Source of the DNA: Candidatus Woesearchaeota archaeon
GTDB taxonomy: Archaea; Nanobdellota; Nanobdellia; Woesearchaeales; 0-14-0-80-44-23
DNA: 64,000 nucleotides
NCBI GenBank assembly: GCA_038874135.1
Contig: JAVZCZ010000001.1
Location: 751,219-815,218, forward strand
Direction: 5' to 3'
A model generated the notes under the pieces. The model ran no database searches and was not told the DNA's origin. It saw only the letters and a list, made by a program, of their open reading frames with translations. Position numbers and translations under genes: made by a program. The stretch's first letter is position 1. Every line of letters starts with the position of its first letter. This document shows, in pieces, positions 1 to 32,418 of this stretch.

Positions 1-3000
1 TGCTCATACTCTTCTAACTACTTGGAAGTGCAGTGCTCAGATGAGCAAGCCTATGGCAATGCCTCTACATATTTTTACATATTTGAACTTCCATCCGTGA
101 ATACTTACGAACCGAACGATTCTGCAATAATAAACTCTTCCTCATTCCAATTTGAATATGAAATTCTGCCAGAATCGTCAGCATACTTAGTTAAAAACTG
201 CGCCCTTATATTAGATGGAACTTCCTGTAACTCTACTGATTTACCTCACAATGGAACAAACAGCATAAGCTGCCCGTTCAGTGAAGGATCTCACACTTGG
301 AAGGTGCTCTGCACACTCATAGGCTCAGGCCAGGAAACTATTGAAAGTCAAGAAAGAGGATTCTTTGCAGATTATAGTCCTCCAAATATAAACCTAATTA
401 ATCCAAACCAGCCCGCTTACAATTCAGATGTTCCCATTGAATTTAACATTACAGACTCTGCCTCTTCATCATTCAATTGCACAATATCCGGCATTCCAGC
501 ACCATTCAATCTCAGCTCACTTGTTTCCTACTCTTCTAAGCTTAACCTTCCAGTAGGAAAATATAATCTAACGATTTCCTGCTCAGATGCTGCTGGAAAT
601 TCTGCATATACTTGGCAAGAATTTGAACGAATAAATCTTTCAGTTTCAACTGACAAAAAATATTATATTCCTATGGAAAATGTGTTTATAACGCTGAACG
701 CTCCTCCTTCCCAAACAAATATCTCAGTTTCAAAAGGCAATTTCACACTGTCCAAAACAACAACTCCACCATATCCAATAGTCTACATCTTCACATCCTC
801 AAACGAGCCTGGAGATTACCTGGTGCAGGCATTTACAACATATAACAACATAACATTCACTGCCAACACCTCATTCTCAGTCAATATAACTAGAAACCTT
901 ACACTTTCAATATCAGCTAACACCACAACAGCTGAGCCCGGAGTAAGAATCCTATTCTATTCTAATGTTTCAGGAAACCTCACTCCTGTTACATACTTGT
1001 GGGACTTTAATAATGATAACCTTCCCGAAAGCAGCCTTCCAAATACCGAATACTCTTTCTCACAGCCTGGAAGATACCTCGTAACTTTAAAAGTGAACGA
1101 CTCATATTCCTCCGCCTCAGCTTCAATAAATATAACAGTGCTCTCCAGAGCAAATTTGAGCATTACAGTTCTTAACAGGCTTGGAGAACCTCTCGCTGGA
1201 GCAAACATCACGCTAGGCAACACATCTGCCATAACCAACTCCTCTGGAGCAGCAGTCATGCAGAATCTGCTTCAAGGCACATACCCTATAAATGTAACAG
1301 CCACAAATTACAATTCGTATTTCAACACAGTGGACATTTCCTCTAACAAAAACATAACAATATATCTACAAGAGCTCACAGAAGAGCCGGAAATCCTAAT
1401 AACAGAACCAACAGATGGTGCTACAATAACATCCCTTCCAATTACAATAAGGTTCAAAGCAAATTTATCATATCCTACAAACTGCACACTATACAAAAAT
1501 GAACAACAATCCTGGTGGGAACAGCTTTCTCAGATGGCTGTTACAAACAACACTGAAAATACCTTGTCAGTAGCCAATCTCACGGACGGGCAAGTTCTTC
1601 TAAGAATCGTATGCACAGATGTATTCGGAAACAGTGGCACCCAACAGATTTCCCTTAACATCAGCACACTACCAAAAGAGCCGCAATATCCAGAACTAGA
1701 CCAGGCAGAAGAAGAGCTCTACACAAAACAGGAATACTACAACAGCATAGGACCAGCACAGCTTGAAGCAGCTCAACTATTAGGTATACCTGATATGCTC
1801 TCAGATGCTCAGAACCGATTAACACTCGCCAGGAGGGATCTCTCAGACCTCTCATATTCAAAAAAGAGCCCGGAGGAAAAAGAAGCAAGAAAGAGTGAAA
1901 TAATATCTGACGCCGTTTCACGAATCAATGCAATTCCAGATTCAATACAGGTGCTATCTTCTTATGAACAGATACACTATCCAACTCAGCAAGAGCTGGA
2001 AAAGGTGGCAGCTCCCTTCATCTCAGCTAATTCTCTGAAGATAGACCAGCGGACATTCCTAAGAGCAAACTCTCCACTTATTGAGCTAATAACAATAAAT
2101 ACAAAAGCGTTTTCAATAGTGCTAAATTATAACGGGGAGAGCCGAGAAGTGTCTGTAATAAAGCACTCTGTACAGCTCAGCCAACAGCTTAACGAATCAG
2201 CAATCTCAAACCTGATGTTAATACTCAATATTCCAAAACAGATAGCTGACTCAGCAGCAGGAATCACATTTATGGACAGGTATGGACAAAAAGTAGTCAA
2301 AGATGATCCAATCTTTTCACTTCCTGTTACAAGCGAAATAGTTTACCAAATAAACAAGAGCATTGATGCAAATTCTGCTTCTGAGATATCACTCCTCTTA
2401 GTAAGCAAGAGTGCTTCAGTTTCAATACCAGGCATATCGGGACTGGCAGTTTCACAGACAAGGTATTCCATCTGGCCTTTCAATCTCATTGGAGGAAAAA
2501 TTGGCTCCAGTTTAGCTATTCAAATAGTAATACTTGTAGTGCTTCTTACCATATACTTAGTATACACCCTTCAGCCGGAAATAATAAGCAGATCAGCAGA
2601 TGCACTAGGAAATCATATCAAAAATCTCAGACCTCGCTCGGAAAATAGGATGAAGCAAATAGTCCATGCTGAGAAGTCAATTCCCACAACACTACAGAAC
2701 AATTTAGCTAGCATGCCGCAGCAACAAACATACTCACCCATTCAACAACAAGTAGTTCCCATAGGGCCTGGAATGCAGCATTCTTACATTGCTTACAGAA
2801 TGCAACGGGCTCTTCAGTTGGCAGAGCAGAACAACTATGAGGAAGCTTCAGCCGCATATTATGAATTAAAATTCCTTTATAACACGCTCAGCTCTCACGA
2901 AAAATCCCTACTTTATCCGCAATTATTAAACCTGGGACACAAGCTTAACATTTCCTATATCAGACAGTTAGTTTCAGAAGCAAAGTTAAAGGTTAATTCA

Positions 3001-3222
3001 GACTACCAAGAAGCCCTTGAACTTTATGATAAGATCTCCAAGGCATACTCACTGCTCCCTACAGAGTTCAAGTATGCAGTGTTCTCTGAATGTCTTGAGC
3101 TTCTAAACATTCTTGAAAGGGCAAGAAAAAACCAGAACAACTCTGAAAATCAAGCAGTAACCTTCAAAAAGAAAAAAAAGAGGTGCAGGTCAAAATCACA
3201 CGCCAAGGCGAGAAGGGCATAA
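1..3222 (+). CDS. Giant surface protein, 5'-partial, with tandem Ig-like repeats, a single TM helix near aa 830 and a cytoplasmic tail
   Basis: The ORF is open to the window start with no upstream stop in frame. It has repeated ~95-aa units with an NC[ST]L...W.V.C.D..GN Cys-pair motif, many N-x-S/T sequons, and a hydrophobic helix IQIVILVVLLTIYLVYTL followed by a ~230-aa tail. Confidence 0.6.
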   Translation, partial: CSYSSNYLEVQCSDEQAYGNASTYFYIFELPSVNTYEPNDSAIINSSSFQFEYEILPESSAYLVKNCALILDGTSCNSTDLPHNGTNSISCPFSEGSHTWKVLCTLIGSGQETIESQERGFFADYSPPNINLINPNQPAYNSDVPIEFNITDSASSSFNCTISGIPAPFNLSSLVSYSSKLNLPVGKYNLTISCSDAAGNSAYTWQEFERINLSVSTDKKYYIPMENVFITLNAPPSQTNISVSKGNFTLSKTTTPPYPIVYIFTSSNEPGDYLVQAFTTYNNITFTANTSFSVNITRNLTLSISANTTTAEPGVRILFYSNVSGNLTPVTYLWDFNNDNLPESSLPNTEYSFSQPGRYLVTLKVNDSYSSASASINITVLSRANLSITVLNRLGEPLAGANITLGNTSAITNSSGAAVMQNLLQGTYPINVTATNYNSYFNTVDISSNKNITIYLQELTEEPEILITEPTDGATITSLPITIRFKANLSYPTNCTLYKNEQQSWWEQLSQMAVTNNTENTLSVANLTDGQVLLRIVCTDVFGNSGTQQISLNISTLPKEPQYPELDQAEEELYTKQEYYNSIGPAQLEAAQLLGIPDMLSDAQNRLTLARRDLSDLSYSKKSPEEKEARKSEIISDAVSRINAIPDSIQVLSSYEQIHYPTQQELEKVAAPFISANSLKIDQRTFLRANSPLIELITINTKAFSIVLNYNGESREVSVIKHSVQLSQQLNESAISNLMLILNIPKQIADSAAGITFMDRYGQKVVKDDPIFSLPVTSEIVYQINKSIDANSASEISLLLVSKSASVSIPGISGLAVSQTRYSIWPFNLIGGKIGSSLAIQIVILVVLLTIYLVYTLQPEIISRSADALGNHIKNLRPRSENRMKQIVHAEKSIPTTLQNNLASMPQQQTYSPIQQQVVPIGPGMQHSYIAYRMQRALQLAEQNNYEEASAAYYELKFLYNTLSSHEKSLLYPQLLNLGHKLNISYIRQLVSEAKLKVNSDYQEALELYDKISKAYSLLPTEFKYAVFSECLELLNILERARKNQNNSENQAVTFKKKKKRCRSKSHAKARRA

Positions 3223-5564
3223 TTTGTGCTCTGCTTTTAGGAATTGTAACTATAATCTTAGGTAGTTATGCCTGCGCTTTGGAATTTTCACCATCTTCAA
3301 TTAACGAAGTGCTTTCTATTAACAAGTTTGTTCAGAAAAACATAACTTTGAAGAATGAACTCTCCTATCCGGTAAGGATTGCTCTGGTGCCCTCTTCTAA
3401 CATTAGCGATTTATTAGACATCACTCCAAATTCTATTGAAATCGGGGCAAGAGAGTCAAAGAATGTTCTGGTTACAATATACGGAAATGTTGATCCTATA
3501 AAATTTATTAATCGCTCGTATTACATCTTTAATGGCTTCATAAAGCTTGAAGGAGCTAACGCTCAAATACCTACGGACTTGATGGTCACTAATGGAACAA
3601 TAAACCTGCCCAGCAGCATGGTGCTTTCAGCATCGGCAGGTAAGGATTATTTCACTAAATCAGAAAATCTCTCTTTTATAATTGTTGTAACGAATCTTAT
3701 GACAGGCTCAAAACCAAATGTTACTCTTTTCTATTATTTCCTAATTGATAAAAACTCAGAAATTCCCGTTGGGAACGATTCCTTCATAATTACTACTTCA
3801 AAATCAGTTGTAAAGGAATTCATACCAATGTCTTCAATACCTGATGGCACCTATACTTTCAGGGTTGTAATGTCTTATGCAGATAAGAAGAGTGTTGCTG
3901 ATGTGCCCTTCAGGATATCAACCCCATTTATATTCAGAACATTCTTAGGTATAGCTGTATGGCAGTATATACTCGGAGTGATTGCCTTAATAATAATTGG
4001 CTTGTTAGTATACTGGCGAAGGAAGCGTGTTTTGGCTTCTCGTCGTTATGGTGTGAGTGTGGATTTGCGTAGTTTTCCTTCTTCTGGTAGGCTTGTGCGT
4101 TTGGGTAAGTTGGCGGAGTATGGGCGTGATTTTTGGTTTGATTTGGATGGTTTGACTACGCATTGTATTGTGGCTGGTGCTACTGGTGGTGGTAAGACTG
4201 TTGCTGCTCAGGTTTTGGTGGAGGAGGCTTTGAAGGCTGGTGTGGCTGTGGTTGTTTTTGATCCTACGGCTCAGTGGAGTGGTTTTTTGAGGCCTTGTTC
4301 TGATAAGGGTATGTTGTCTTTGTATTCGGGTTTTGGGTTGCGTCGTTCTGATGCTCGGGGTTTTCCGGGTAATGTGAGGCAGGTGTTGGATGCTCGTGAG
4401 GTTTTTGATGTTAGGCGTTTTATGCGTCCTGGTGAGATTGAGATTTTGAGTTTGAATAGGTTGAGGCCTGAGGAGATTGATGTTTTTGTGGCTAATACTG
4501 TTAGGAGCGTGTTTGATGCGGGTTTGGATGAGTGTCGTGAGTTGAGGTTGTTGTTGGTTTATGATGAGGTGCATAGGTTGTTGCCGCGTTTTGGCGGTTC
4601 TGGTGAGGGTTTTGTGCAGATTGAGAGGGCTTGTCGTGAGTTTAGGAAGTGGGGTGTTGGTGTTGTTTTGATTAGTCAGGTTTTGTCTGATTTTGTTGGT
4701 GAGATTAAGGCTAATATTAATACTGAGGTTCAGATGAGGACTCGTGATGAGGGCGATTTGGAGCGTATTCGTGTTAAGTATGGTGATGCTTATCTTAGGG
4801 GTCTTGTGAGGGCTAGTGTGGGTACTGGTATGTTTGAGAATCCCGGTTATAATGGTGGTCGTCCTTTTTTTGTTAGTTTTAGGCCTTTGTTGCATAGTGT
4901 GGTTCGTTTGTCTGATGCCGAGTTGGGTGAGTATAATAGGTTGAATGGGGTGTTGGATGATTTGGAGTTTTGGATTGGCGAGTTGGAGCGTTTGGGTGTG
5001 GACGTGTTTGATTTGAGGTTGGAGTTGAAGTTGGCTTGGGATAAGTTGAGGGTTGGGGGGTTTGGGATGGTGGATGTTTATGTTGAGGGTTTGAGGCCTC
5101 GCGTGTTGGGCGAGTTTGAGCGTTTGGGGAGGCCTGTTCCTAAGCGTGAGGTTAAACGCCTTTCAGATGAGGAGCTTGCAAAGCAGAGGAAGCTGGCTGA
5201 GCAGAGCCGTGCAGAGTTTATAAAAAAGATGGGCATTAAAGAGCAGCAGTCCAAGCAGGAGGAAAAGAAGGAAGAACACATCGTGCAGCCTTACACTTTT
5301 GATAATGGTGCAATGGTTTCGGAGCTTAAGGAGTTGAAAGACGCTATAGAACCTATGAGTGCTGACATCCTCAGAAGCGCGTTGAGTGGAAACAATAAGC
5401 TTTCTGATTGGATAAAGAATGAGCTTAAGAATGAGCAGCTTGCCTCTGAAATTGAGAAGGCGAAGACGAAAAAGGAGATTCTTGATGCAATAACTGCTGA
5501 ACTTGATAAAGCAGAAAAGAGCAGTGAGAAATCTGGAACTGATAAAGGCCAAAAGTCTAAGTAG
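3183..5564 (+). CDS. Membrane protein with TM, ~240-aa ectodomain, TM and a cytoplasmic FtsK/HerA/T4CP-like P-loop ATPase
   Basis: N-terminal TM helix, Ig-like ectodomain, second TM ending ...LVYWRRKR. Walker A is GATGGGKT, Walker B is LLLVYDEVH, followed by a K/E-rich tail. The ATPase part is identical to that of the 6094 gene. Confidence 0.7.
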   Translation: MQVKITRQGEKGIICALLLGIVTIILGSYACALEFSPSSINEVLSINKFVQKNITLKNELSYPVRIALVPSSNISDLLDITPNSIEIGARESKNVLVTIYGNVDPIKFINRSYYIFNGFIKLEGANAQIPTDLMVTNGTINLPSSMVLSASAGKDYFTKSENLSFIIVVTNLMTGSKPNVTLFYYFLIDKNSEIPVGNDSFIITTSKSVVKEFIPMSSIPDGTYTFRVVMSYADKKSVADVPFRISTPFIFRTFLGIAVWQYILGVIALIIIGLLVYWRRKRVLASRRYGVSVDLRSFPSSGRLVRLGKLAEYGRDFWFDLDGLTTHCIVAGATGGGKTVAAQVLVEEALKAGVAVVVFDPTAQWSGFLRPCSDKGMLSLYSGFGLRRSDARGFPGNVRQVLDAREVFDVRRFMRPGEIEILSLNRLRPEEIDVFVANTVRSVFDAGLDECRELRLLLVYDEVHRLLPRFGGSGEGFVQIERACREFRKWGVGVVLISQVLSDFVGEIKANINTEVQMRTRDEGDLERIRVKYGDAYLRGLVRASVGTGMFENPGYNGGRPFFVSFRPLLHSVVRLSDAELGEYNRLNGVLDDLEFWIGELERLGVDVFDLRLELKLAWDKLRVGGFGMVDVYVEGLRPRVLGEFERLGRPVPKREVKRLSDEELAKQRKLAEQSRAEFIKKMGIKEQQSKQEEKKEEHIVQPYTFDNGAMVSELKELKDAIEPMSADILRSALSGNNKLSDWIKNELKNEQLASEIEKAKTKKEILDAITAELDKAEKSSEKSGTDKGQKSK
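4021..5176. repeat. Copy 1 of an exact 1,156-bp GT-rich cassette encoding the ATPase domain
   Basis: Nucleotide-identical to 8201-9356 at a consistent offset of 4180. Composition is roughly T 40 / G 36 / A 12 / C 12, unlike the flanks. Confidence 0.9.
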
Positions 5565-5612
5565 ATTTCTTATACCTTAACCAACAATGTGGTATTTATA
5601 AACTTAGATTAC

Positions 5613-5708
5613 TTAGTATGCATTTATACACATACACTATTTGTGTCACATTTAAAAATTAGTATATAAAATGAAAATATTTATATATCAATATACATAT
5701 TTAGTATG
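5613..5708 (+). promoter_or_regulatory. Three direct repeats TTAGTAT(G/A) in the AT-rich promoter upstream of the RHH-ATPase-adhesin operon
   Basis: Copies at 5613-5620, 5659-5668 and 5701-5708, spaced 46 and 42 bp apart. The last is 33 bp upstream of the first RHH ATG. Confidence 0.35.
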
Positions 5709-5740
5709 AGTTTGTATTCAAAGACCTTGAAAAGGCTTTT

Positions 5741-5941
5741 TTGGGACCCGAAATGCGCAGTACGCCTGAGAAGCATGGCTCAAAGAGAATAACCATAACC
5801 ATAAGCAAGGACCTTTTAGACTTCTTAGATTTAGCTGTGGAGAACAGGCTGTTCGCAAGCAGAAGTCATGCACTTGAAGTCTTAGTAAGGCGCAGGATGG
5901 AGTTTGAGAATGAAGCAAAGAATTACAATTACATTGGATAG
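5741..5941 (+). CDS. Ribbon-helix-helix (CopG/Arc/MetJ-like) DNA-binding protein
   Basis: 66 aa with a KRITITISKDLLDFLD...NRLFASRSHALEVLV pattern typical of the RHH beta-strand plus two helices. It sits directly upstream of the ATPase operon. Confidence 0.55.
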   Translation: MGPEMRSTPEKHGSKRITITISKDLLDFLDLAVENRLFASRSHALEVLVRRRMEFENEAKNYNYIG

Positions 5942-6101
5942 TGAATGCCTGGCATGGGTTGATGAAAAGGTAAAGAATAGAAGCTTTGCTAATCGGAGCC
6001 ACGGCTTTGAATTTTTAATAGCGCGATTCAAGGAGCGCCAAGAACTTCAGAATCTTCTCAACTCGCGAAATTCAAAGGAGGAAGACTTAAAACATGAATA
6101 A
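5904..6101 (+). CDS. Ribbon-helix-helix DNA-binding protein, paralogue of the 5741 gene
   Basis: 65 aa with QRITITLDSECLAWVD...NRSFANRSHGFEFLIARF. It overlaps both the upstream RHH gene and the downstream ATPase gene start. Confidence 0.55.
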   Translation: MRMKQRITITLDSECLAWVDEKVKNRSFANRSHGFEFLIARFKERQELQNLLNSRNSKEEDLKHE

Positions 6102-9100
6102 AAATCCTACCTTCAGGATACTGGAACGGGACAGGCAGCTGGAAAGGAGAAGACAGCAGCTGTACATCCTATTAGGCATCTTAGGAGTTTTACTAGCAGT
6201 TGGTGTTATACTTCTGATAAGAATGTTCATAGGATACGCAGTTCTGGAAAGCAGGGCTGGCACAATAACACAACTTAATATACAGCTCAGATACTCAACA
6301 CACATATGGGCTGGATTTTACGGATTGGCATTCCGCGTTCCCGGATACACTGAGCAGCAGTCTGCAGTTGCAGTCGGCGGCACAGTCTTCTTGCAGCACT
6401 TAGTATTTGACTGCTTAAAAACTACAGACGGCAACATTCCTGAGGTATATGCCAGTACTTCAAGAAACATTGACTGGAATTCACTCCAGCCAGCAACTCC
6501 AGACTTGATTGACAGCTACCTACAAGTAGATCCTTCAGATATAACCTCTGCTTCAAACACATTTACAGAAACAATGTCAATACTCTTAGGAGACAGAGAA
6601 ATCACAAATATTGCTGCAACGCACACCAAAAAGTTCGGAGTTCCGGACAGCACGGACTTTGATATAGGCTTCTTAAAAGATTCGTTGGGAAATCTCGTAT
6701 TTGTAACCCATGTAACTCCAACTTATACCAAAGGATTTAACAACCAAACTATAAACTACCAAATGCTCCTTCCAGTACAAGCAGGAACAGCTCCAGTATA
6801 CTACTTCTTCTCAGACCCATATGACGAGTGCCAAGCAGGGCTTGAAGCTCTCAAAAATGCTACCATATTCGGAAGAGCCATAGACAATGCAACAGGCCTT
6901 CCACTTGAAAATGTTACAGTTAATCTTCATACTGCTACAGTTCTTACCAACTCTACAGGAGACTATTACATAGCAATATTTAACGGCACCTACACCCTAG
7001 TAGCTTTCAAGCCGGGATATTACACCTTTGTTGCAACAAACATCACTCTCCCAGCTGACAATCTGTCTACACCTCAATCTGAAAATATTGTCGAATTTAA
7101 TATATCCCTCATTCCCAACCCTGGAAACCCAACTGGACTCGGAAACCTAACTGGCACTGTAACTGATAAAGACTTCGGAATACCCCTCTATAATGTAACA
7201 GTGTATGTAAACGGCAGAATCGCTAAGACAAACATTACAGGCCAATACCTACTTGAACTGCCAGCAGGAAATCATTCTCTTATAGCAATGAAGGAAAACT
7301 ACAGAACATACTACACTCCAAATGTAACTATACTGCCTGGAAACACCACTGAATTTAATTTCAGTATGGAATATGCAGAGCCAGAAATAAAAGAAACTCC
7401 TGGATATCCGCTAAATACCTTCGTTTCCAACCTACTCAAACAGGCAGTGCAGAGGCCTCAAATAATACTCACTCATAAGATTGATACAAAAGAGATATTT
7501 GAAACATTAAAAGTTGGCTCATATGTCCAGCGCTCATTCAATATAACGAGTTACAGGCCTGCCGAGTCCAAAGTTGAGTTTGAAGTCATAGGAAGTGCTG
7601 CACAGCTGGTAAAGGTTGACAAGAGCAGCTCAATAATACCTCCAAGGGGTGCAGAAAACTTCACCCTTACAATTCTAGCCAATGTGCCTCCAGGCATATA
7701 TACCGGAACATTCCTAATCAAAGGAGACCTTGAAGACAGAATCCCGATAAAGATAGTTGTTTATGAGAAGGATAGACTTCCAATAGAGGCTCTTCTCCTA
7801 GAAGTAGTGCCAATAAAAAAGATAATCAGCCCAGGAGAACTATTTGAATATAAGGTCAGCATGACAAACCTGCTGAGGGACACCCCATACAACATCACCC
7901 TTTCATACAATATCACCTCGCGCTCTTCAAATCTTACTATTCCCGTTGAAGAAGAGACGAGACTCTTGGAAACTCAGCTTTCCTACCTTAAGTATTACAA
8001 GCTTCCCAAAGACCTGCCAGAAGGAGAATACTTCCTTGAAACTAGAGCGGAATTCTTAGAACTATCAACAAACACAAAATCGCTATTCATAGTTAAGAAG
8101 CCAATTTACATGTATGCATTATTCGGAATACTTCCCCTCTGGCAGCTTTTCATAATAATAGTTTTCACCTCCCTCATGACCTTCGCAGGATTAATGTATC
8201 GGAAGCGTGTTTTGGCTTCTCGTCGTTATGGTGTGAGTGTGGATTTGCGTAGTTTTCCTTCTTCTGGTAGGCTTGTGCGTTTGGGTAAGTTGGCGGAGTA
8301 TGGGCGTGATTTTTGGTTTGATTTGGATGGTTTGACTACGCATTGTATTGTGGCTGGTGCTACTGGTGGTGGTAAGACTGTTGCTGCTCAGGTTTTGGTG
8401 GAGGAGGCTTTGAAGGCTGGTGTGGCTGTGGTTGTTTTTGATCCTACGGCTCAGTGGAGTGGTTTTTTGAGGCCTTGTTCTGATAAGGGTATGTTGTCTT
8501 TGTATTCGGGTTTTGGGTTGCGTCGTTCTGATGCTCGGGGTTTTCCGGGTAATGTGAGGCAGGTGTTGGATGCTCGTGAGGTTTTTGATGTTAGGCGTTT
8601 TATGCGTCCTGGTGAGATTGAGATTTTGAGTTTGAATAGGTTGAGGCCTGAGGAGATTGATGTTTTTGTGGCTAATACTGTTAGGAGCGTGTTTGATGCG
8701 GGTTTGGATGAGTGTCGTGAGTTGAGGTTGTTGTTGGTTTATGATGAGGTGCATAGGTTGTTGCCGCGTTTTGGCGGTTCTGGTGAGGGTTTTGTGCAGA
8801 TTGAGAGGGCTTGTCGTGAGTTTAGGAAGTGGGGTGTTGGTGTTGTTTTGATTAGTCAGGTTTTGTCTGATTTTGTTGGTGAGATTAAGGCTAATATTAA
8901 TACTGAGGTTCAGATGAGGACTCGTGATGAGGGCGATTTGGAGCGTATTCGTGTTAAGTATGGTGATGCTTATCTTAGGGGTCTTGTGAGGGCTAGTGTG
9001 GGTACTGGTATGTTTGAGAATCCCGGTTATAATGGTGGTCGTCCTTTTTTTGTTAGTTTTAGGCCTTTGTTGCATAGTGTGGTTCGTTTGTCTGATGCCG

Positions 9101-9636
9101 AGTTGGGTGAGTATAATAGGTTGAATGGGGTGTTGGATGATTTGGAGTTTTGGATTGGCGAGTTGGAGCGTTTGGGTGTGGACGTGTTTGATTTGAGGTT
9201 GGAGTTGAAGTTGGCTTGGGATAAGTTGAGGGTTGGGGGGTTTGGGATGGTGGATGTTTATGTTGAGGGTTTGAGGCCTCGCGTGTTGGGCGAGTTTGAG
9301 CGTTTGGGGAGGCCTGTTCCTAAGCGTGAGGTTAAACGCCTTTCAGATGAGGAGCTGCAGAAGGAAAAGGAGATTGCTATGCAGGAACATGAGAAAGCAA
9401 AACAGCAGGAAGCAGGACAAACTTCACAAAATTCAGATTCCAAGACAGAAACTTCCCAAATTCAAAACACAAAAGTTGAAGAGCAGCCCAGCCAAAATGA
9501 AAAGGCCGAGAACCAAGAGAATGCAAAATCCTCAAATGAAAATAAAATTAAAAGAGTAAGGGAGGGTAAAAAGCAGAGGATGAGGAAATCAGCAAGTTCG
9601 GAAAAAAATAATAAAAAAAGAGGTGCTAAAAAATGA
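6094..9636 (+). CDS. Membrane protein with TM, ~640-aa ectodomain (CarboxypepD_reg-like / Ig-like domains), TM and a cytoplasmic FtsK/HerA/T4CP-like ATPase
   Basis: N-terminal TM helix LYILLGILGVLLAVGVILLI. Two domains resemble TGLPLENVTV...GDYYIA...KPGYY. Second TM, then an ATPase identical to aa 279-664 of the 3183 gene. Confidence 0.7.
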   Translation: MNKNPTFRILERDRQLERRRQQLYILLGILGVLLAVGVILLIRMFIGYAVLESRAGTITQLNIQLRYSTHIWAGFYGLAFRVPGYTEQQSAVAVGGTVFLQHLVFDCLKTTDGNIPEVYASTSRNIDWNSLQPATPDLIDSYLQVDPSDITSASNTFTETMSILLGDREITNIAATHTKKFGVPDSTDFDIGFLKDSLGNLVFVTHVTPTYTKGFNNQTINYQMLLPVQAGTAPVYYFFSDPYDECQAGLEALKNATIFGRAIDNATGLPLENVTVNLHTATVLTNSTGDYYIAIFNGTYTLVAFKPGYYTFVATNITLPADNLSTPQSENIVEFNISLIPNPGNPTGLGNLTGTVTDKDFGIPLYNVTVYVNGRIAKTNITGQYLLELPAGNHSLIAMKENYRTYYTPNVTILPGNTTEFNFSMEYAEPEIKETPGYPLNTFVSNLLKQAVQRPQIILTHKIDTKEIFETLKVGSYVQRSFNITSYRPAESKVEFEVIGSAAQLVKVDKSSSIIPPRGAENFTLTILANVPPGIYTGTFLIKGDLEDRIPIKIVVYEKDRLPIEALLLEVVPIKKIISPGELFEYKVSMTNLLRDTPYNITLSYNITSRSSNLTIPVEEETRLLETQLSYLKYYKLPKDLPEGEYFLETRAEFLELSTNTKSLFIVKKPIYMYALFGILPLWQLFIIIVFTSLMTFAGLMYRKRVLASRRYGVSVDLRSFPSSGRLVRLGKLAEYGRDFWFDLDGLTTHCIVAGATGGGKTVAAQVLVEEALKAGVAVVVFDPTAQWSGFLRPCSDKGMLSLYSGFGLRRSDARGFPGNVRQVLDAREVFDVRRFMRPGEIEILSLNRLRPEEIDVFVANTVRSVFDAGLDECRELRLLLVYDEVHRLLPRFGGSGEGFVQIERACREFRKWGVGVVLISQVLSDFVGEIKANINTEVQMRTRDEGDLERIRVKYGDAYLRGLVRASVGTGMFENPGYNGGRPFFVSFRPLLHSVVRLSDAELGEYNRLNGVLDDLEFWIGELERLGVDVFDLRLELKLAWDKLRVGGFGMVDVYVEGLRPRVLGEFERLGRPVPKREVKRLSDEELQKEKEIAMQEHEKAKQQEAGQTSQNSDSKTETSQIQNTKVEEQPSQNEKAENQENAKSSNENKIKRVREGKKQRMRKSASSEKNNKKRGAKK
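8201..9356. repeat. Copy 2 of the exact 1,156-bp GT-rich ATPase cassette
   Basis: Identical to 4021-5176. The antisense ORFs 4005-4895 and 8191-9075 are also identical. Confidence 0.9.
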
Positions 9637-18652: not shown

Positions 18653-21600
18653 AACGCAGCATAACTTTTGGAATAATTTTTCTACTTTTAATAGCATTAT
18701 CTCTAAAAATTTCCAGTGCGAGCTGTCCGGAAATAATACTTTCATCCAACACCACTATAAAAGATGTAGATATAAAAATAAAAGTTTCAGGGCAGACACA
18801 AGAGTCAGAATTAGTGATAAGAACGCCTTCAGGTCCGTATCGTCTTTTAGGAGATATTCCTTCCCTTACAAGCTTTACTCCAAAAGATGTAGGTAACTAC
18901 TCTGTTGAAGTTTGGCAGGACAAAGTGCTGTGTGACATAAAAAATTTTACCGCACTACCTCACAATAACTCGACACTATTCCTTCCGCCAATACTTTCCA
19001 CAGATAAAAAAGAATACCACTTAGGTGAAGCTGTTAGAATTTCACTCTCACCAGAATATTACGGTTACTCAATTGAAGGTTTAAATTTAAAACTGTTGAC
19101 AGGACAGCAATCCTACTCTCTCTTAGGGGAAATATCTGAGGATATAGAATTCCGACCTGTTTTTGAGGGTAACTATACAATTCTCTTATTAGACTCCATT
19201 GGAAATACTCTTGCTTCTGAAAGCTTTTCCGTCTACGCTTTGAATAGTTACTTTGTTAATAACTTATCTATTAAAAAACGATTTTCGGACAAATTTGAAT
19301 ACAACATCAGCACTAATTCAGAAGACATGATTGTTGAATTCTCAAACTCCTTCATTAAAAGACTAAACCTAAAGAAACTATCTTCAAGTAATCTGGCGAT
19401 AGTTAGGATTTCAGAGTTACTGCCGGAAGAGAGGAGCCGTCTGAATATTCCTACAATTGGAGGTGAAATTAAAGAATCTTTTGAATTAGATCCTTCCGCC
19501 CTAAACTTTTCAGAAGGTGAACTAACAATTGTCCCTTCAGGAAATGAGCTGTGGAAGTGCACTGATTGGAATTATGATGCTCAGTATTGTGTCGGAAGTT
19601 GGATCAAGCAGCAGAATCTTGTTCCCGGTGTTGAAAATGTAATTAAGTTTAACCTTTCCGATCCAGGATATGCTATTGTTGCAACTGCTAACATAACTTC
19701 AATAGCAGCAGCAACCCTCTCTGAAAACTCTTTTGTAGTAGCATATTGCGATGATACAAATGATAGAACTGCTTTCAAGGTTTTCTGGGCTAATGGGAGT
19801 GTAAGAACTAATGAGGTGATAGTTGATTCAACTACTGGAAATTGTGGTTACACCTCAGTTTCTGTTTCAGCACTTACCAACAACTCTTTTGTTATCGGAT
19901 GGATTGATACTGCCAGCAGTTATGCCAGCTTCGCTGTTTATGATGCCTCTGGAAATGTTATTACTCCAAGGGTGGATGTGGATACTACTGCTGGTACTTC
20001 CCGTTCTGTGAGTGTGTCTGCTTTTAATAGTTCTGCTTTTGTTTTTGGTTGGTATGATCAGGCTTCTGCTTATGCTTCTTTTAGGACTTTTAGTTCTTCT
20101 GGTGTGGCTATTTCTTCTGTTGTTAATGTGGATACTACTGCTGGTACTTGTAATGCTGTTTCTGTTTCTGCGGTTAATTCTTCTGCTTTTGTTTTTGGCT
20201 GGTATGATCAGGCTTCTTCTGATATGACTTTTCGTACTTATACTTCTTCTGGCGTTGCGATTTCTGCCGTGACTGATGTGAATACTAAGGTGGGTACTGG
20301 TTCTTTTTCTGTTTCTGTTGCTGCTTATAATTCTAGTGCTTTTGTTATTGTTTGGTATGATCAGAGGCTGGGTTATGTTAGTTTTCGTCAGTATTCTGTT
20401 GCTGGTGTTCAGATTGGGAGTCAGGTTAATCCGGATACTGCTGTTGGGACTACTGCTTCTGGTGTTTTTGTTTCTTCTGTTGGTGTGAATTCTAGTGTTT
20501 TTGCTGTGGGTTGGAATGATTTGACTACTGATGTTGTTAGTTCTGTGAGGACTTATAGTGGTGCTGGTGCTGCTGTTTCTTCTGAGGTGGTTGTGCAGGC
20601 TAATGCTTTGAAGTATAATGCTCTTGCCGGCTACTACCCTGCTACAGGCATAGGTTTCTGCAATGGAAACTTTGTAGCAATAATTGTTAATACTTCTTCG
20701 CAGGCATTTTTTAAAGCATACATGCCTAATGGAAGCGAATGGGACGGAAACTGTCCTGATGTTATACCGCCTCAAGTTGTTCTGAATAGTCCTCAGCAAG
20801 CCGCTGTCTTCTATAGTGATACTGTGGATTTTAATTTTACAGTAACCGACAATGTAGATTTAGTAATTCCAAACTGTACCCTTTGGATAAACACTTCATC
20901 AACATTCTCTCCAAACATAACAATTTACAATATAACCTCTAATAAGATGAACAACATAACTCTATCTCAAATTCCAGACAACAAATACATTTGGAATGTC
21001 AGGTGTTATGACAATGCAGGCAACTCAGCATTTGCTTCTTCAAATTTTTCATTATTTATCAACAAGAATCCACCTCAAATCTTGAACCCCCTCCTGAATG
21101 AAAGTACAGTAAATCAGAGCCATTCAGTAAAGTTTAATGTCTCAATAACCGATTCATATGGTATAGACTCTGCATATATAACTATGATGTACCCAAACGG
21201 TTCATCAAATAATTATTATCTTAATAGAAGTGGGAATGAATTTTACTTCATAATTAATAATACAATCCAGATAGGAACATATTCTGTGATATATGTGTGG
21301 GCTAATGATACCCTCGGACAAAACTCTTCTCTAACCCTTTCAGATCTCCAGTTTAATGTCACGCCTTCACCACCTGCTCAATTCAACCTTTTAAGTCCCC
21401 CGAATGCAACAGAGTCAACAAACCTGCGACCAAACTTGACTTGGGAGACATCTTACGATGAGACATTCCTTAATTATACTATTCAGATTTCTCAGGATGA
21501 AAACTTCGCAACAGTACTCTTTACATATTATAATCCGGGTGTTTATAATACTTCAAGAGTGCTGGATTATGCCCTAGAAGCGAATAAGAAATATTACTGG

Positions 21601-26655: not shown

Positions 26656-27150
26656 ATGCCAATTTTAAAGAAAGAGCAACCAACTGCATTTCAGGAGCCA
26701 CCTAAAGAAGTGCCGCCCTTGGCGCGGGAGATAATTGAAAGGAGCAAGATAGCTGGGCATACCGAACTTCCTCAGGAACTTCCACGAATTGCCGAATTGG
26801 TTGAAAGCCCAAAACAGGAATATCCAATACCACAAGAGTCAGCTCACGCTTCCGACGACATAAAAGAAGTGAAAGAACGCCTTGAACGAATAGAATCCTT
26901 GCTCAGAACTGCTGTTCCGGGAAAATATCTCATACTGAGAGATGGGAAAGTACTTAAGAACATTGCCGATTTGAGAAGCGCTTTAGCCACGATGAGTTCG
27001 GAAACATTCAATTTGCATGTCAACTTTGAGAGGAATGACTTTGCAAATTGGGTTAGGAATGTCTTCTTGGAAAAAGAGCTTGCTGATAAGTTGGATGGAG
27101 CCACGAGCAGGGCTCAGATGATTAGAATTTTAAACGAATATTTTGACTGA
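26656..27150 (+). CDS. Hypothetical soluble protein with a C-terminal HVNFERND domain
   Basis: 164 aa. The last ~70 aa are similar to the cytoplasmic C-terminus of the 35335-37869 protein (F.HVNFERND.A.W...LA..L...M..IL). Confidence 0.5.
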   Translation: MPILKKEQPTAFQEPPKEVPPLAREIIERSKIAGHTELPQELPRIAELVESPKQEYPIPQESAHASDDIKEVKERLERIESLLRTAVPGKYLILRDGKVLKNIADLRSALATMSSETFNLHVNFERNDFANWVRNVFLEKELADKLDGATSRAQMIRILNEYFD

Positions 27151-27453: not shown

Positions 27454-28224
27454 ATGAAAAGGCGAATCAAAAACTTAGGAGCAATAGCCTCCTTCCTGGC
27501 TTTGTTGCTAGCAGCAGCAGTTCTGGCAGAACCTCAACAGGAGCCAATAGGTCCTGACAGCATAAACCAGTTAGGCTCCAGCAGGCATACCCCCGCAGCT
27601 ATTCCATCACGCCCAGCATATGCAGGAAACGTAACTGAACTTTCAGTCTATACTCAGACCACAACACTCGGCTGGCAAGGTTACTATGGAAATGTAACGG
27701 GTACAATAGTTCTTGATGATGCTAATAATCACACAATGTATGACTGGGCAATTGCACATCCAGAAGGAGAAATCTATGCAGTAATCCAACCAGTAGCTGA
27801 TTGGGACCAGGTTTCATGTGCAACTCCAGCTCAGATAAGTACGATAGAAAACAACACTTACAAGTTTAACACTTATCCGAACGGAACACTAAAGCCCTCA
27901 TTAGATGCAGACAGCATTACAAACACATTTGCAGCAAACTTTGATGGAGACTTTTATGTCGGCTCAACACGAATAAATGCTACATCCGGGTGTAAGGCAG
28001 CATACCTCTATGTCAATGATGCTCCAGACCCGTCAAAGAAGTTTACTGAGACATTGCTATACGACCAGGTGAATGCTAATCTCATCTTCACAGCAATCCT
28101 GGTAGAGAATACGGCAACAGGATTTGACGGGCTGCCTCACGACTTTCAGATGATAGTAGCAGAGAACGGTCACAATGGAGATGAAACCACAACAACATAC
28201 TACTTTTATGTAGAACTGCAATAA
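27454..28224 (+). CDS. Secreted protein, paralogue of the 28495 gene
   Basis: Signal peptide. Shared motifs with the 28495 product are YxGNVTG, ...YDW... and FDFQMIV...YY.YVEL. Confidence 0.55.
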   Translation: MKRRIKNLGAIASFLALLLAAAVLAEPQQEPIGPDSINQLGSSRHTPAAIPSRPAYAGNVTELSVYTQTTTLGWQGYYGNVTGTIVLDDANNHTMYDWAIAHPEGEIYAVIQPVADWDQVSCATPAQISTIENNTYKFNTYPNGTLKPSLDADSITNTFAANFDGDFYVGSTRINATSGCKAAYLYVNDAPDPSKKFTETLLYDQVNANLIFTAILVENTATGFDGLPHDFQMIVAENGHNGDETTTTYYFYVELQ

Positions 28225-28294: not shown

Positions 28295-28498
28295 ATGGAA
28301 CGCATCCCAGCACTAAATCCCAGATACACAAAAGTGGTCTGGCAGGAAACCCCTCAATCTGTAAGGGTTATACAGGGTATCTATTCTGAAGATGGAGACT
28401 TCATAAGAGTTAAAGGCGACTATAAAGAGGTTCTAATCAGAAAGGATAAGGTGATCTCCATAGAGCACAAGCAGGCTGCGCGGGGTGATATAAAATGA
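28295..28498 (+). CDS. Small hypothetical protein
   Basis: 67-aa ORF between the two paralogues, with an ATGA overlap with the downstream gene. Confidence 0.35.
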   Translation: MERIPALNPRYTKVVWQETPQSVRVIQGIYSEDGDFIRVKGDYKEVLIRKDKVISIEHKQAARGDIK

Positions 28499-30159: not shown

Positions 30160-32418
30160 ATGTTGAAATATAATCAGAGGTTTATTTTATATGCATCATT
30201 TCTAATTTTAATAGCAGCACTTTCCAGTATGGCAGCTGCTGCTCCAATAACATTTTCTACACACTTCTTAGCTCCTATAGCAGTCGCTTCTCTGTCTAGA
30301 GACTCATTCGTAATCGCGTATTGTGACAATACCTCCGCCAAGGTCGCCTTTCAAATTTATAGAACTAATGGCACCCAGCTCCTTGCAGAGCGGGATGTGG
30401 ACACAACACTTGGAACAAACCCTTGCGGTTACACTTCAGTTGCAGTTTCAGCTTTTAATTCAACACACTTTGTTATCGGCTGGATAGACAGCGGAAGCTC
30501 TTATGCAAGCTTTCAAGTGTTTGATATAAATGGGAATCCATATTCCAGCAGGGTGGATGTGGATACTACTGCTGGTACTTCCCGTTCTGTGAGTGTGTCT
30601 GCTTTTAATAGTTCTGCTTTTGTTTTTGGTTGGTATGATCAGGCTTCTGCTTATGCTTCTTTTAGGACTTTTAGTTCTTCTGGTGTGGCTATTTCTTCTG
30701 TTGTTAATGTGGATACTACTGCTGGTACTTGTAATGCTGTTTCTGTTTCTGCGGTTAATTCTTCTGCTTTTGTTTTTGGCTGGTATGATCAGGCTTCTTC
30801 TGATATGACTTTTCGTACTTATACTTCTTCTGGCGTTGCGATTTCTGCCGTGACTGATGTGAATACTAAGGTGGGTACTGGTTCTTTTTCTGTTTCTGTT
30901 GCTGCTTATAATTCTAGTGCTTTTGTTATTGTTTGGTATGATCAGAGGCTGGGTTATGTTAGTTTTCGTCAGTATTCTGTTGCTGGTGTTCAGATTGGGA
31001 GTCAGGTTAATCCGGATACTGCTGTTGGGACTACTGCTTCTGGTGTTTTTGTTTCTTCTGTTGGTGTGAATTCTAGTGTTTTTGCTGTGGGTTGGAATGA
31101 TTTGACTACTGATGTTGTTAGTTCTGTGAGGACTTATAGTGGTGCTGGTGCTGCTGTTTCTTCTGAGGTGGTTGTGCAGGCTAATGCTTTGAAGTATAAT
31201 GCTCTGGCTGGCTACTACCCTGCCACGGGCATACGCATGTGTGACAACGCATTCGTAATAGCAATTTCTAATACAAGCACGCAAGCATTCTTCACAGGAT
31301 ATTATGCCAATGGAACCAACTGGAATGGAATATGCACGCCTCCGAATATGAACTCATCTAAAATAACCTCTTCAGAAGATAACTTTTACTACAATGCAAC
31401 CCTGATTGGATGGTGCAATGCAACCCATCCTGACAGCCAAAACATCTCATACTACTACAACTGGTACCTAAACGGGCTATTAAACAAAAGTGGACAAACA
31501 CAGTATAGCACTCCAGGAGTCGCAGTGAATGTGGATAACATAACCTCATCATACCTCTCAATAGGCCAAAACTGGACTTTGGAATGCATTGCCTATGACG
31601 GATTATCCAACTCAACACCTCTCAACTCGACAGCAGTGACAATAGTGGATATAAATAGGCCTCCCCTGATAACCTCAATTCTTTTGGACGATGACATCCT
31701 TGCTCCTTCTTTTCAGATAGATTTATCTGCGGGCTCAACTAAAAGGGTTAATTGTAATGGCACAATTCAGGATCCAGATGGAATCTCAGACATTGTGAGC
31801 ATATCAGCAGTACTTTACGCTTCTGGCAACGGCACTCTTCCTACATTTCCCGAAGACAATAACACATTATACCGAAACTACAGCTGCTCACTATCCCAAA
31901 TAAACCTGACCTCTGGCTCTTTTAACTGCTCATTCGCATTGTGGTATTATGCCCAAAACGGCACCTGGACATGCAATGTTACTATTAATGACACAAAGTC
32001 CCACTACGCTTCAGCAATAATAAATTCAACTGTTAACGAGCTGGTGGCATTTGAAGTTTTCCCACTAACAGTTGACTATGGCAATATGGCTCCTGGAAGC
32101 ACCAGCGCGTCTTCAACAAATCTGCTAATAACCAATATGGGCAATACAAAAATTGACTTAATACTTAATGGCACCAACATGAGCTGCACCTTAGGATTTG
32201 TAGGAGCTTCAAACCAGCATTATAATTTGACAGGGTTTGACCAGGAATATTCTAATATGAGAGCACTTACCGAGCTTCCGTTTACCGCTTCAGATTTTGA
32301 CCTTCAAAAGCGTGTAACCTCGGAAGCTAACAGGACTGCCTATTGGCGCGTTCAAATCCCTACAGGCGTTAAGGGAAGATGTCTAGGTATAATTCAGCTG
32401 ACAGCTCAGAAGGGTTAA
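30160..32418 (+). CDS. Secreted protein with beta-propeller-like blades plus a C-terminal domain homologous to the 29195 protein
   Basis: Signal peptide. The blades include a 219-aa stretch 100% identical to the 18649 protein. The C-terminal ~260 aa are homologous to the 29195 protein. Confidence 0.65.
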   Translation: MLKYNQRFILYASFLILIAALSSMAAAAPITFSTHFLAPIAVASLSRDSFVIAYCDNTSAKVAFQIYRTNGTQLLAERDVDTTLGTNPCGYTSVAVSAFNSTHFVIGWIDSGSSYASFQVFDINGNPYSSRVDVDTTAGTSRSVSVSAFNSSAFVFGWYDQASAYASFRTFSSSGVAISSVVNVDTTAGTCNAVSVSAVNSSAFVFGWYDQASSDMTFRTYTSSGVAISAVTDVNTKVGTGSFSVSVAAYNSSAFVIVWYDQRLGYVSFRQYSVAGVQIGSQVNPDTAVGTTASGVFVSSVGVNSSVFAVGWNDLTTDVVSSVRTYSGAGAAVSSEVVVQANALKYNALAGYYPATGIRMCDNAFVIAISNTSTQAFFTGYYANGTNWNGICTPPNMNSSKITSSEDNFYYNATLIGWCNATHPDSQNISYYYNWYLNGLLNKSGQTQYSTPGVAVNVDNITSSYLSIGQNWTLECIAYDGLSNSTPLNSTAVTIVDINRPPLITSILLDDDILAPSFQIDLSAGSTKRVNCNGTIQDPDGISDIVSISAVLYASGNGTLPTFPEDNNTLYRNYSCSLSQINLTSGSFNCSFALWYYAQNGTWTCNVTINDTKSHYASAIINSTVNELVAFEVFPLTVDYGNMAPGSTSASSTNLLITNMGNTKIDLILNGTNMSCTLGFVGASNQHYNLTGFDQEYSNMRALTELPFTASDFDLQKRVTSEANRTAYWRVQIPTGVKGRCLGIIQLTAQKG
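30550..31205. repeat. Copy 2 of the exact 656-bp GT-rich propeller cassette
   Basis: Identical to 19969-20624. The antisense ORFs at 20012-20227 and 30593-30808 are also identical. Confidence 0.9.

Follow-up and report, generated by a model that had tools for sequence, protein, structure and literature searches.

Two genes of a Candidatus Woesearchaeota archaeon, ORF1 and ORF2, located on a 64,000-nucleotide stretch of contig JAVZCZ010000001.1 (positions 751,219 to 815,218 of the forward strand; hereafter the window), encode paralogues in a large DPANN-specific family of membrane-anchored HerA/VirB4-like ATPases, and their ATPase-coding parts are a single cassette present twice, an exact direct repeat of 1,156 bp in which nearly every codon ends in G or T. 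Based on the comparison of related loci, profile searches and structure models, the product of the locus is, on balance, probably a ring motor anchored in the membrane, which serves a cell-surface apparatus of DPANN archaea and is specified by gene-converted cassettes under a sense-strand pressure from amino to keto bases. A sequence-only reading of the same DNA had described two ATPase-bearing proteins; both ORFs do carry an ATPase, but the two domains are one cassette, and the exact repeat had gone unrecorded.

The repeat begins at the cytoplasmic end of the transmembrane (TM) helix and stops past the helical domain that follows the ATPase core. In this cassette, 368 of the 377 codons end in G or T (NNK codons) and none ends in A, which corresponds to a K3, the fraction of third codon positions that are G or T, of 0.976; the other 33 ORFs of the window have a K3 of 0.50 +/- 0.06, with no 100-codon stretch above 0.69. 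The GC content of the cassette is 0.47, with a GC skew of +0.58 and an AT skew of -0.44, and the skews of both ectodomain-coding parts lie within +/-0.15. Synonymous first positions are converted too, since leucine is encoded by 43 TTG and 3 CTT codons in the cassette and, across the NNK tracts, by TTG in 40-47 codons and by other leucine codons (CTN/TTA) in at most 3, against a background of 8% TTG. The bias extends to amino acid usage: lysine falls from 7-12% to ~3% and isoleucine from 5-9% to ~2%, asparagine, threonine, glutamine and histidine are about halved, and arginine, glycine, valine and phenylalanine are increased (K to R, I to V). The A/C-rich antisense strand is almost free of predicted secondary structure, at -5 to -8 kcal per 100 nt compared with -20 to -25 in the flanks, and the sense strand folds normally by means of G-U pairs.

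Antisense ORFs of 274-310 amino acids (aa) lie over the NNK tracts at 4005-4895, 8191-9075, 19867-20799 and 30460-31284, all on the minus strand. In the first of these, the first codon base falls on the sense third position (4895 - 3185 = 1710 = 3 x 570); since a G or T at the sense third position gives an A or C at the start of every antisense codon, stop codons are excluded. The ORF at 4005-4895 was thus rejected as a gene and regarded as a by-product of NNK coding, and the other three are probably of the same kind. Such ORFs could be mis-called as genes, and a spurious minus-strand gene has been called at 236-469 of the related sequence L091.

Orthologous cassettes in the NNK state are known from at least three related lineages, with K3 = 1.00 in L003, L005, L083, L085 and L087 and 0.997 in L001. 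Third-position differences between them are almost all G/T exchanges (44 of the 53 synonymous differences between the window and L083), whereas the 270 codons compared in that gene's ectodomain contain 114 synonymous differences, in which transitions are in excess as usual. This G/T-only turnover next to a normal ectodomain spectrum indicates that the NNK state is old and actively maintained. A metagenome scan with the NNK-coded invariant peptide revealed seven further stretches, six of which are fully NNK-coded and belong to the same clade, and in the same scan the NNK-coded cassette was not found in viral contigs. No NNK cassette was seen among ~75 other woesearchaeotal, pacearchaeotal and nanoarchaeotal loci sampled. 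Three apparent NNK runs (L040, L050 and L068) proved to be wrong-frame readings of low-complexity tails, and a fourth (L082) is probably due to chance. In the literature on the family, the operon and the coding state, no description of the NNK state was found.

The two cassette copies are nearly identical within genomes. Those of L001 share an exact 1,066-bp core, with every difference confined to the flanks, those of L003 are 99.84% identical over 1,246 bp, and the copies L084 and L085, both on one JGI contig, are 97.5% identical including flanks. In a second metagenome-assembled genome (MAG; L090), which is 99.8% identical to the window over 15.6 kb, the copies are mutually identical, and both share the same two T/G differences from the window. 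Between genomes, in contrast, the cassettes show 94, 87 and 75% amino acid identity, and tandem paralogues in distant genomes are only 64-82% identical. Near-identity within genomes combined with divergence between genomes indicates concerted evolution by intragenomic gene conversion, and the limits of the NNK tracts and of the identity agree within ~25 nt wherever they are comparable. The identity of the window's copies is safely placed at 99% or more and is probably 100%. Concerted evolution of prokaryotic paralogues is on record (PMC6053082), as for mtrA (PMC4632066), and the present case is similar in that the paralogues are more alike within a genome than to their orthologues through long-term gene conversion. 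It differs in that conversion is limited to one domain-coding cassette with very sharp borders and G/T-only coding; PMC6053082 makes no mention of skew or GC content.

The cassette is not the only such tract. A 656-bp exact repeat, with NNK-coded copies in ORF6 and in a 752-aa secreted protein, is the sole other long repeat in the window; it encodes a ~50-aa beta-repeat module (SVSVSAFNSSAFVFGWYDQ...), and its flanks, although homologous between the two ORFs, have diverged and show normal coding. In the L003-like lineage, too, this module is NNK-coded (L085, 13611-14285). Beside these two pairs, a third NNK tract of ~267 codons is located ~6 kb upstream of the window in the gene for a Cys-rich secreted protein (L091, 251-1051), the L090 counterpart of which (21-782 and 884-1048) contains a stretch of N between duplicated 127-bp sequences, a sign that the Cys-rich tract may be repeated in the genome as well. 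In L035 (CAYOTW010000017.1), a third-position G/T bias extends over the whole genome, with K3 ~0.77 in both cassette and ectodomain and a third-position GC (GC3) skew of ~0.8, so that a milder, genome-wide form of the same strand bias exists in the group; the two ATPase genes of L035 are identical to each other over a tract of 245 bp. The idea that G/T enrichment rises with paralogue identity was rejected, as the bias-corrected excess is ~0.5 in three genomes of the clade and ~0 in seven other tandem pairs.

As a tentative but real possibility, an undescribed repeat-linked process in one Woesearchaeota clade homogenizes paralogue modules (the ATPase motor, the beta-repeat module and probably the Cys-rich module) and drives free sense-strand sites from A and C to G and T. 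The process could consist of repeat-targeted or recombination-coupled deamination and repair, or it could be a selected recombination-cassette code by which ectodomains are swapped; either form, if true, would represent a new kind of archaeal genome dynamics. In the reading of the locus preferred here, which is the mutational one, A and C are probably lost persistently and specifically from the sense strand through deamination-type changes (C to T, A to G), and the deamination would be coupled to recombination, or to R-loops, that homogenize the tracts. Coupling to recombination is suggested by the confinement of the coding state to homogenized tracts. In single-stranded nucleic acid, deamination converts C to U and A to hypoxanthine, and strand-asymmetric deamination is familiar from the vertebrate mitochondrial heavy strand and from the G+T excess of coding strands associated with transcription. 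As in those cases, C and A are lost, and T and G gained, on one strand, which there is the strand exposed in single-stranded form; unlike those signatures, which extend over whole genomes or transcription units, the present one is saturated and lies in duplicated tracts of 0.65-1.2 kb. Two other explanations were rejected. A target of a diversity-generating retroelement does not fit, because the copies show no differences at A positions, being identical, and the tracts are 0.65-1.2 kb long; no reverse transcriptase was found among the scanned window proteins, in a search limited to the window. Biased gene conversion through repair of G/T mismatches fails on logical grounds, since it raises G:C symmetrically and cannot enrich T on the sense strand.

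The motor encoded by the cassette belongs to the FtsK-HerA superfamily as a genuine branch of its own, and HerA and VirB4 are closer relatives of it than the coupling proteins. The Pfam models DUF87 (37.8 bits; cut-off 23.2) and HerA_C (37.4; cut-off 22) match above their cut-offs, both over the Walker A region only, and the FtsK, type IV coupling protein (T4CP), AAA_10 and Zot models remain below threshold (T4SS-DNA_transf, 16.3 vs 20.1; TrwB_AAD_bind, 18.7 vs 20.5). Thus, of the Pfam families named in the sequence-only reading, DUF87 was recovered, whereas AAA_10, T4SS-DNA_transf and FtsK were not. The top sequence match in the PDB is Sulfolobus HerA (E = 1.7e-7), across the Walker A and Walker B regions. 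The RecA-like core superimposes on solved members of the superfamily, and the closest structural matches include several HerA structures determined in complex with a partner (SIR2-HerA, HerA-DUF and HerA-NurA). The values listed for the motor against its relatives are 23.3 for the DndH C-domain, 22.0 for VirB4, 18-21 for defence-type HerAs, 17.7 for TrwB, 16.0 for EccC, 15.9 for FtsK, 15.9 for TcpA and 15.4 for the STIV2 packaging ATPase.

In ORF1, the Walker A motif AGATGGGKT occupies aa 331-339 (4173-4199) and the Walker B motif LLLVYDE aa 456-462 (4548-4568); G335, G337, K338, D461 and E462 do not vary among 50 short and 56 long homologues, and the motifs FDPTAQW, FGGSGEGF, IERACREFRKWG and LISQ are invariant or nearly so throughout the family. 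Four invariant arginines, R482, R485, R488 and R519, are candidates for the arginine finger. The superfamily assignment made from the sequence alone is therefore borne out by the DUF87 and HerA_C matches, the intact Walker motifs and the RecA-like core. The HAS-barrel is absent from the model, in which the TM helix (aa 259-285) is followed by just a short hairpin ahead of the core. All NCBIfam equivalog tests (HerA, CedD, TraD, TraC and TraB) fail, with scores far from the cut-offs for the HerA-type models (NF040937, 34.6 vs 800; NF040819, 25.3 vs 970), the TraD models (30 vs 366 and 18.7 vs 648), TraC/VirB4 (27 vs 567) and CedD (NF053655, 32 vs 600). PADLOC gave weak partial matches only (mad8, 56 bits; HerA, at most 43 bits; ORF3 and ORF4 without a match), and the PHROGs matches were weak and generic.

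Hydropathy identifies two hydrophobic helices in each protein, at aa 13-31 and 257-275 in ORF1 and at aa 24-42 and 673-691 in ORF2. A strongly basic stretch follows the second helix (RRKR in ORF1, YRKR in ORF2), which, according to the positive-inside rule, places the ATPase in the cytoplasm. All N-x-S/T sequons (7 of 7 in ORF1, 21 of 21 in ORF2) lie between the two helices, and none is found in the 500-aa C-terminal part, where the composition of the cassette partly suppresses them. The basic residues and the sequon placement together indicate that the middle part is outside the cell and the C-terminal 500 aa are in the cytoplasm, as had been supposed before. The first helix of ORF1, and that of its orthologue P0001, resembles a cleavable signal peptide, so that mature ORF1 may be single-pass, while the first helix of ORF2 is read as a signal anchor; the earlier picture of two TM helices bracketing an ectodomain thus holds for the two hydrophobic helices of each protein, but the first one of ORF1 is possibly removed.

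AlphaFold2 (AF2) models were obtained with mean predicted local distance difference test (pLDDT) scores of 83.8 for ORF1 (50 homologues) and 80.3 for ORF2 (56 homologues). The ORF1 model consists of two beta-sandwiches (aa 33-136 and 146-246), a TM helix (259-285), the RecA-like core (304-566), a helical domain (578-647), a coil and a small C-terminal domain (704-784). The ORF2 model contains a long N-terminal helix, a globular beta domain (60-245), two CarboxypepD_reg domains (aa 255-425; Pfam E = 4e-22, in two stretches), two beta-sandwiches (461-667), a TM helix (682-709), the same ATPase and a low-complexity basic tail. These models and the Pfam match agree with the Ig-like ectodomains previously proposed for ORF1 and with the two carboxypeptidase-regulatory-like domains plus further beta-rich modules proposed for ORF2. 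The membrane-proximal beta-sandwiches of the two proteins share only 23% amino acid identity, in contrast to the identical cassettes beside them.

The fusion of an ectodomain to such a motor had been called an unusual arrangement, which is correct in comparison with characterized systems but not within a very large DPANN family, where it is the norm. A first homology search found 897 significant proteins among 8,000 candidates, the named ones being from Woese-, Pace- or Nanoarchaeota, and an exhaustive, profile-free search with the ATPase part gave at least 361 clusters at 50% identity (E < 1e-30). At least 550 loci were confirmed in species-representative genomes. The homologues form two size classes of ~780-850 aa and ~1,250-1,380 aa, both of which often share one contig. 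Furthermore, about one-third of the best 150 clusters are 2,000-6,253 aa long with the ATPase at the extreme C-terminus, and ectodomain length in the family ranges from ~250 to ~5,600 aa. The giant members are built from a signal peptide, thousands of sequon-rich adhesin-like residues, the same membrane-proximal region, the TM helix and the ATPase; P0174, P0207, P0140, P0126 and P0139, for example, are 2,700-6,253 aa long, with the ATPase cassette as the last ~400-600 residues. As judged from these sequences, the arrangement is a family trait in which one conserved motor is combined with very variable ectodomains. No description of the family or the operon was found in the literature on DPANN/Woesearchaeota HerA, DUF87, FtsK or conserved gene clusters. 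The predicted archaeal secretion system of Makarova et al. 2015 (PMC5898192) comprises a MoxR ATPase and arCOG01314 and is hence a different system.

By analogy with solved relatives, ORF1 and ORF2 are most likely the motor base of a surface or host-contact apparatus. The motor may form a ring, hexameric as in the structures of its relatives HerA, TrwB and FtsK, that is pressed on the membrane; because the core starts ~20 residues after the TM helix, the ring would lie against the membrane, a position known from TrwB, FtsK and EccC. A collar could then be built from six TM helices and twelve membrane-proximal sandwiches, and the variable ectodomains would project from it. The ring may serve as the ATP-driven base of a cell-surface, probably host-contact, apparatus, and it could drive a polymer, either DNA or protein, through the membrane or else remodel the fibres attached to it at the surface. 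Since their motors are identical, short and long subunits probably occur together in one ring or bind common cytoplasmic partners (ORF3, ORF4 and DUF5752-like proteins).

Several observations weigh against this combined reading of motor and cassette. Hexamer formation is predicted by analogy with solved relatives and translocation of a particular substrate is putative, and no relaxase, nuclease or recognizable channel protein was found in the operon. The giant neighbouring proteins bear N-terminal signal-like hydrophobic segments, and, as Sec-exported proteins need no extra motor, they could leave the cell without the ATPase. As to the cassettes, short-read assemblers can merge near-identical repeats, so that the 100% identity is possibly slightly inflated, and independent assemblies of the same organism (P0264, P0266 and P0267) end inside the cassette, leaving partial proteins of 743, 321 and 317 aa, as does L091. 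The link between identity and NNK coding amounts phylogenetically to one clade, and all tracts seen are in genes on the plus strand, which makes sense-strand and replication-strand effects inseparable. Neither a deaminase nor a reverse transcriptase was found among the Pfam-scanned window proteins. The 245-bp conversion tract of L035 has no G/T excess over that genome's own bias, and gene conversion alone therefore does not yield the NNK state.

The main rival to the translocating motor, unlikely but substantial, is a cytoplasmic hub for oligomerization or remodelling. It would bundle six surface fibres into an anchored stalk, and ATP would power the assembly, tensioning or shedding of the fibres, or signalling through them, without any translocation. 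The same cassette ends giant adhesin-like proteins of up to 6,253 aa, which fits an anchor role, the closest structural matches include the HerA-partner complexes named above, and no channel or substrate gene was recognized in the operon; in addition, HerA acts as a scaffold and activator in defence complexes. However, the invariance of Walker A, Walker B and the other motifs over hundreds of homologues points to conserved catalysis, and a ring placed directly on the membrane resembles TrwB, FtsK and EccC, which are translocases.

Also unlikely in our estimate, though a real alternative, is that the G/T-only coding is selected rather than mutational, with the cassettes acting as recombination modules or with the mRNA avoiding all-A/C trinucleotides (e.g., a nuclease site). 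RecA-family recombinases would favour the G/T-rich strand, its complement would be free of structure, and the benefit would be the shuffling of ectodomains onto one motor. RecA prefers binding to TGG repeats (PMC3763553), and the weak folding of the antisense strand, the presence of the same motor on extremely diverse ectodomains family-wide and the persistence of the NNK state while synonymous sites of the ectodomain turned over are all compatible with selection. However, the pressure has also altered roughly one residue in four of a conserved enzyme, in the sense that base loss predicts (K to R, I to V), which is more typical of mutation bias or drive; ~75 other lineages hold the same gene pair without NNK coding, and the recombinant isoforms are hypothetical.

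It is very improbable that the identical repeats are an assembly artefact or that the cassette is recent foreign DNA from a strand-skewed donor. Repeats beyond read length do merge in assembly graphs, the three truncated assemblies end within the cassette, and the N-gap in L090 lies at another NNK tract, but a codon-periodic G/T pattern cannot come from assembly. Moreover, the pattern recurs in frame in independent NCBI, ENA and JGI sample assemblies at 75-94% amino acid identity, and L001 and L003 resolve two copies with different flanks. In practice, cassettes that break short-read assemblies and fragment MAGs are a sign of a genuine repeat. An import is countered by cassette divergence that tracks ectodomain divergence, by the retention of NNK coding in each lineage and by the lack of a match in viral contigs. 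Least credible of all is a HerA-based anti-virus defence pair or the coupling protein of a conjugative or integrated mobile element: the weak PADLOC (mad8 and HerA) and NCBIfam (TraD, TraC and CedD; 27-32 bits) matches fit such a role, but the latter lie far under their cut-offs (30 vs 366; 32 vs 600), no SIR2, nuclease, relaxase, VirB-type partner or integrase was found in the operon, the chromosomal flanks are housekeeping genes (topoisomerase I, L10e, NOG1 and aIF5B), and the conserved surface-protein synteny of at least 550 loci is unlike the patchy distribution of defence and mobile genes.

Table 1. Positions of the cassettes, protein domains and genes in the window.
Feature	Position	Strand	Remarks
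Cassette copy 1, whole ATPase and helical domain	4021..5176	+	exact 1,156-bp direct repeat, NNK
Cassette copy 2	8201..9356	+	identical to 4021-5176, NNK
Second cassette pair, copy 1, in ORF6	19969..20624	+	656-bp exact repeat, NNK
Second cassette pair, copy 2, in ORF 30160-32418 (752-aa secreted protein)	30550..31205	+	NNK
ORF0, PKD / CarboxypepD_reg surface protein	22..3222	+	Pfam PKD E = 6e-12
ORF1, short ATPase fusion, 793 aa	3183..5564	+	NCBI MEM0230902.1
ORF1 ectodomain, two beta-sandwiches (Ig-like / MSP-like)	3279..3920	+	all 7 sequons
ORF1 membrane-spanning helix, aa 257-285, then basic RRKR	3951..4037	+	hydropathy, AF2
ORF1 C-terminal small helical domain, DUF5752-like, aa 704-784	5292..5534	+	AF2 model
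ORF2, long ATPase fusion, 1180 aa	6094..9636	+	NCBI MEM0230899.1
ORF2 ectodomain, globular domain, CarboxypepD_reg and two beta-sandwiches	6271..8094	+	all 21 sequons
ORF2 second membrane helix, aa 673-709	8110..8220	+	hydropathy, AF2
ORF3, basic low-complexity cytoplasmic protein, 274 aa	9633..10457	+	
ORF4, cytoplasmic coiled-coil protein, 385 aa	10458..11615	+	
ORF5, giant secreted Ig-like / CARDB surface protein, 2346 aa	11612..18652	+	132 sequons
ORF6, giant secreted Ig-like / CARDB surface protein, 2612 aa	18649..26487	+	holds NNK tract 3

The two ATPase genes, whose NCBI records already carry the label "DUF87 / HerA-like domain-containing protein", stand in a gene order (Table 1) that runs from a PKD membrane protein through the ATPase gene or genes, a small basic protein and a coiled-coil protein to giant Ig-like/CARDB secreted proteins, and the same order recurs in L001, L002, L003 and L090. 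According to tblastn over 81 related loci, a homologue of the PKD protein is located upstream on the same strand in 56 loci, an ORF4 coiled-coil homologue directly downstream of the ATPase gene in 51, and giant surface proteins near the ATPase gene in 55-58. The start codon of ORF0 lies upstream of the window, its full-length counterpart in L090 having 1172 aa, and a C-terminal TM helix (aa 829-847, by hydropathy) is followed by a cytoplasmic tail. ORF3 evolves fast in sequence yet keeps a constant place after the ATPase genes, and for ORF4 no informative match was found in the PDB. The surface-protein island occupies positions 1 to ~41,000 of the window, past which the housekeeping genes for NOG1, topoisomerase I, L10e and aIF5B follow; the locus is therefore chromosomal. 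No relaxase or mating-pair-formation genes were found among the 38 Pfam-scanned window proteins or the genes called in L001-L003 and L090.

The small C-terminal domain of ORF1 is one of three DUF5752-like copies in the window, the others being the C-terminus of a TM-anchored 843-aa surface protein (m843; 35335-37869, minus strand) and a free cytoplasmic 164-aa protein (p164; 26656-27150, plus strand). The copies in ORF1 (650-767) and m843 (719-837) match each other by blastp (E = 4e-9), the Pfam DUF5752 match in m843 being weak, and their motif is ...NG..V.S..EL......F..HVN...NDFA.W.... Two copies of the domain are found in some long family members, and a free copy is located beside the operon in L002. 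The domain is a candidate cytoplasmic docking module. Homology to the N-terminal globular domain of the ORF2 ectodomain (aa 49-239; E = 1e-6 to 1e-8) was found for two small secreted proteins of 256 aa (27454-28224, plus strand) and 230 aa (28495-29187, plus strand). A 305-aa protein (29195-30112, plus strand) and the last 280 aa of the 752-aa protein (30160-32418, plus strand) are paralogous at 40% identity. Just upstream of the PKD gene, and outside the window, two genomes carry a tiny gene pair (L001, 1418-1796; L090, 6147-6525) that encodes a 58-aa ribbon-helix-helix protein and a 73-77-aa protein, which are candidate regulators.

For the combination of identical repeats and G/T-only coding, we know of no counterpart. 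In the cassettes, concerted evolution coincides exactly with an extreme strand-specific base bias, a natural situation that may be used as a handle on archaeal recombination, deamination repair and possibly a programmed shuffling among surface proteins. DPANN archaea are of tiny size, and most of them depend on a host; the family, which is very widespread in Woese-, Pace- and Nanoarchaeota and always linked to surface proteins, is thus a concrete candidate, open to testing, for the base of a machine for host contact or uptake.

Among characterized systems, the Ced ATPases of Crenarchaeota (CedB/CedD) are membrane-associated HerA/VirB4-like proteins proposed to move DNA between cells. The present proteins are likewise archaeal membrane-associated HerA/VirB4-like ATPases, with a weak NCBIfam CedD match over the Walker A region, but they belong to a DPANN taxon and another operon, possess a large ectodomain and are not accompanied by recognizable CedA-type partners. 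The HerA anti-phage systems (SIR2-HerA, DUF4297-HerA and MADS) are linked to effectors, whereas no SIR2 or nuclease was found in this operon and the PADLOC matches are weak. In HerA-NurA (PDB 4D2I), a HAS-barrel occupies the place taken here by the TM helix and ectodomain; that complex is soluble and partnered by NurA, in contrast to membrane-anchored proteins whose neighbours are PKD, coiled-coil and giant Ig-like proteins. VirB4/TrwK and the C-domain of DndH (DptH) differ from the single ATPase fused to a large ectodomain, beside which other type IV secretion genes were not found. EccC and EssC contain three tandem FtsK-like ATPase domains (with FHA in EssC) and the present proteins one each, and neither the relaxase nor the type VII secretion system (T7SS) partners of T4CP and EccC systems were found beside ORF1 and ORF2.

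The T4CPs (TrwB, VirD4, TraD and TcpA), like FtsK/SpoIIIE and EccC/EssC, are more distant from the motor than HerA and VirB4. The topology described as type-IV-coupling-protein-like in the sequence-only reading can be retained for the N-terminal membrane anchor and the cytoplasmic nucleotide-binding domain, but it does not extend to the motor itself, for which T4CP profiles are below cut-off and HerA/VirB4 closer. In contrast to the short loop of T4CPs and FtsK, the extracellular part in this family is made of Ig-like domains and measures 250 to over 5,000 aa, and adhesin-like fibres of up to ~5,600 aa are covalently coupled to a HerA/VirB4-type motor.

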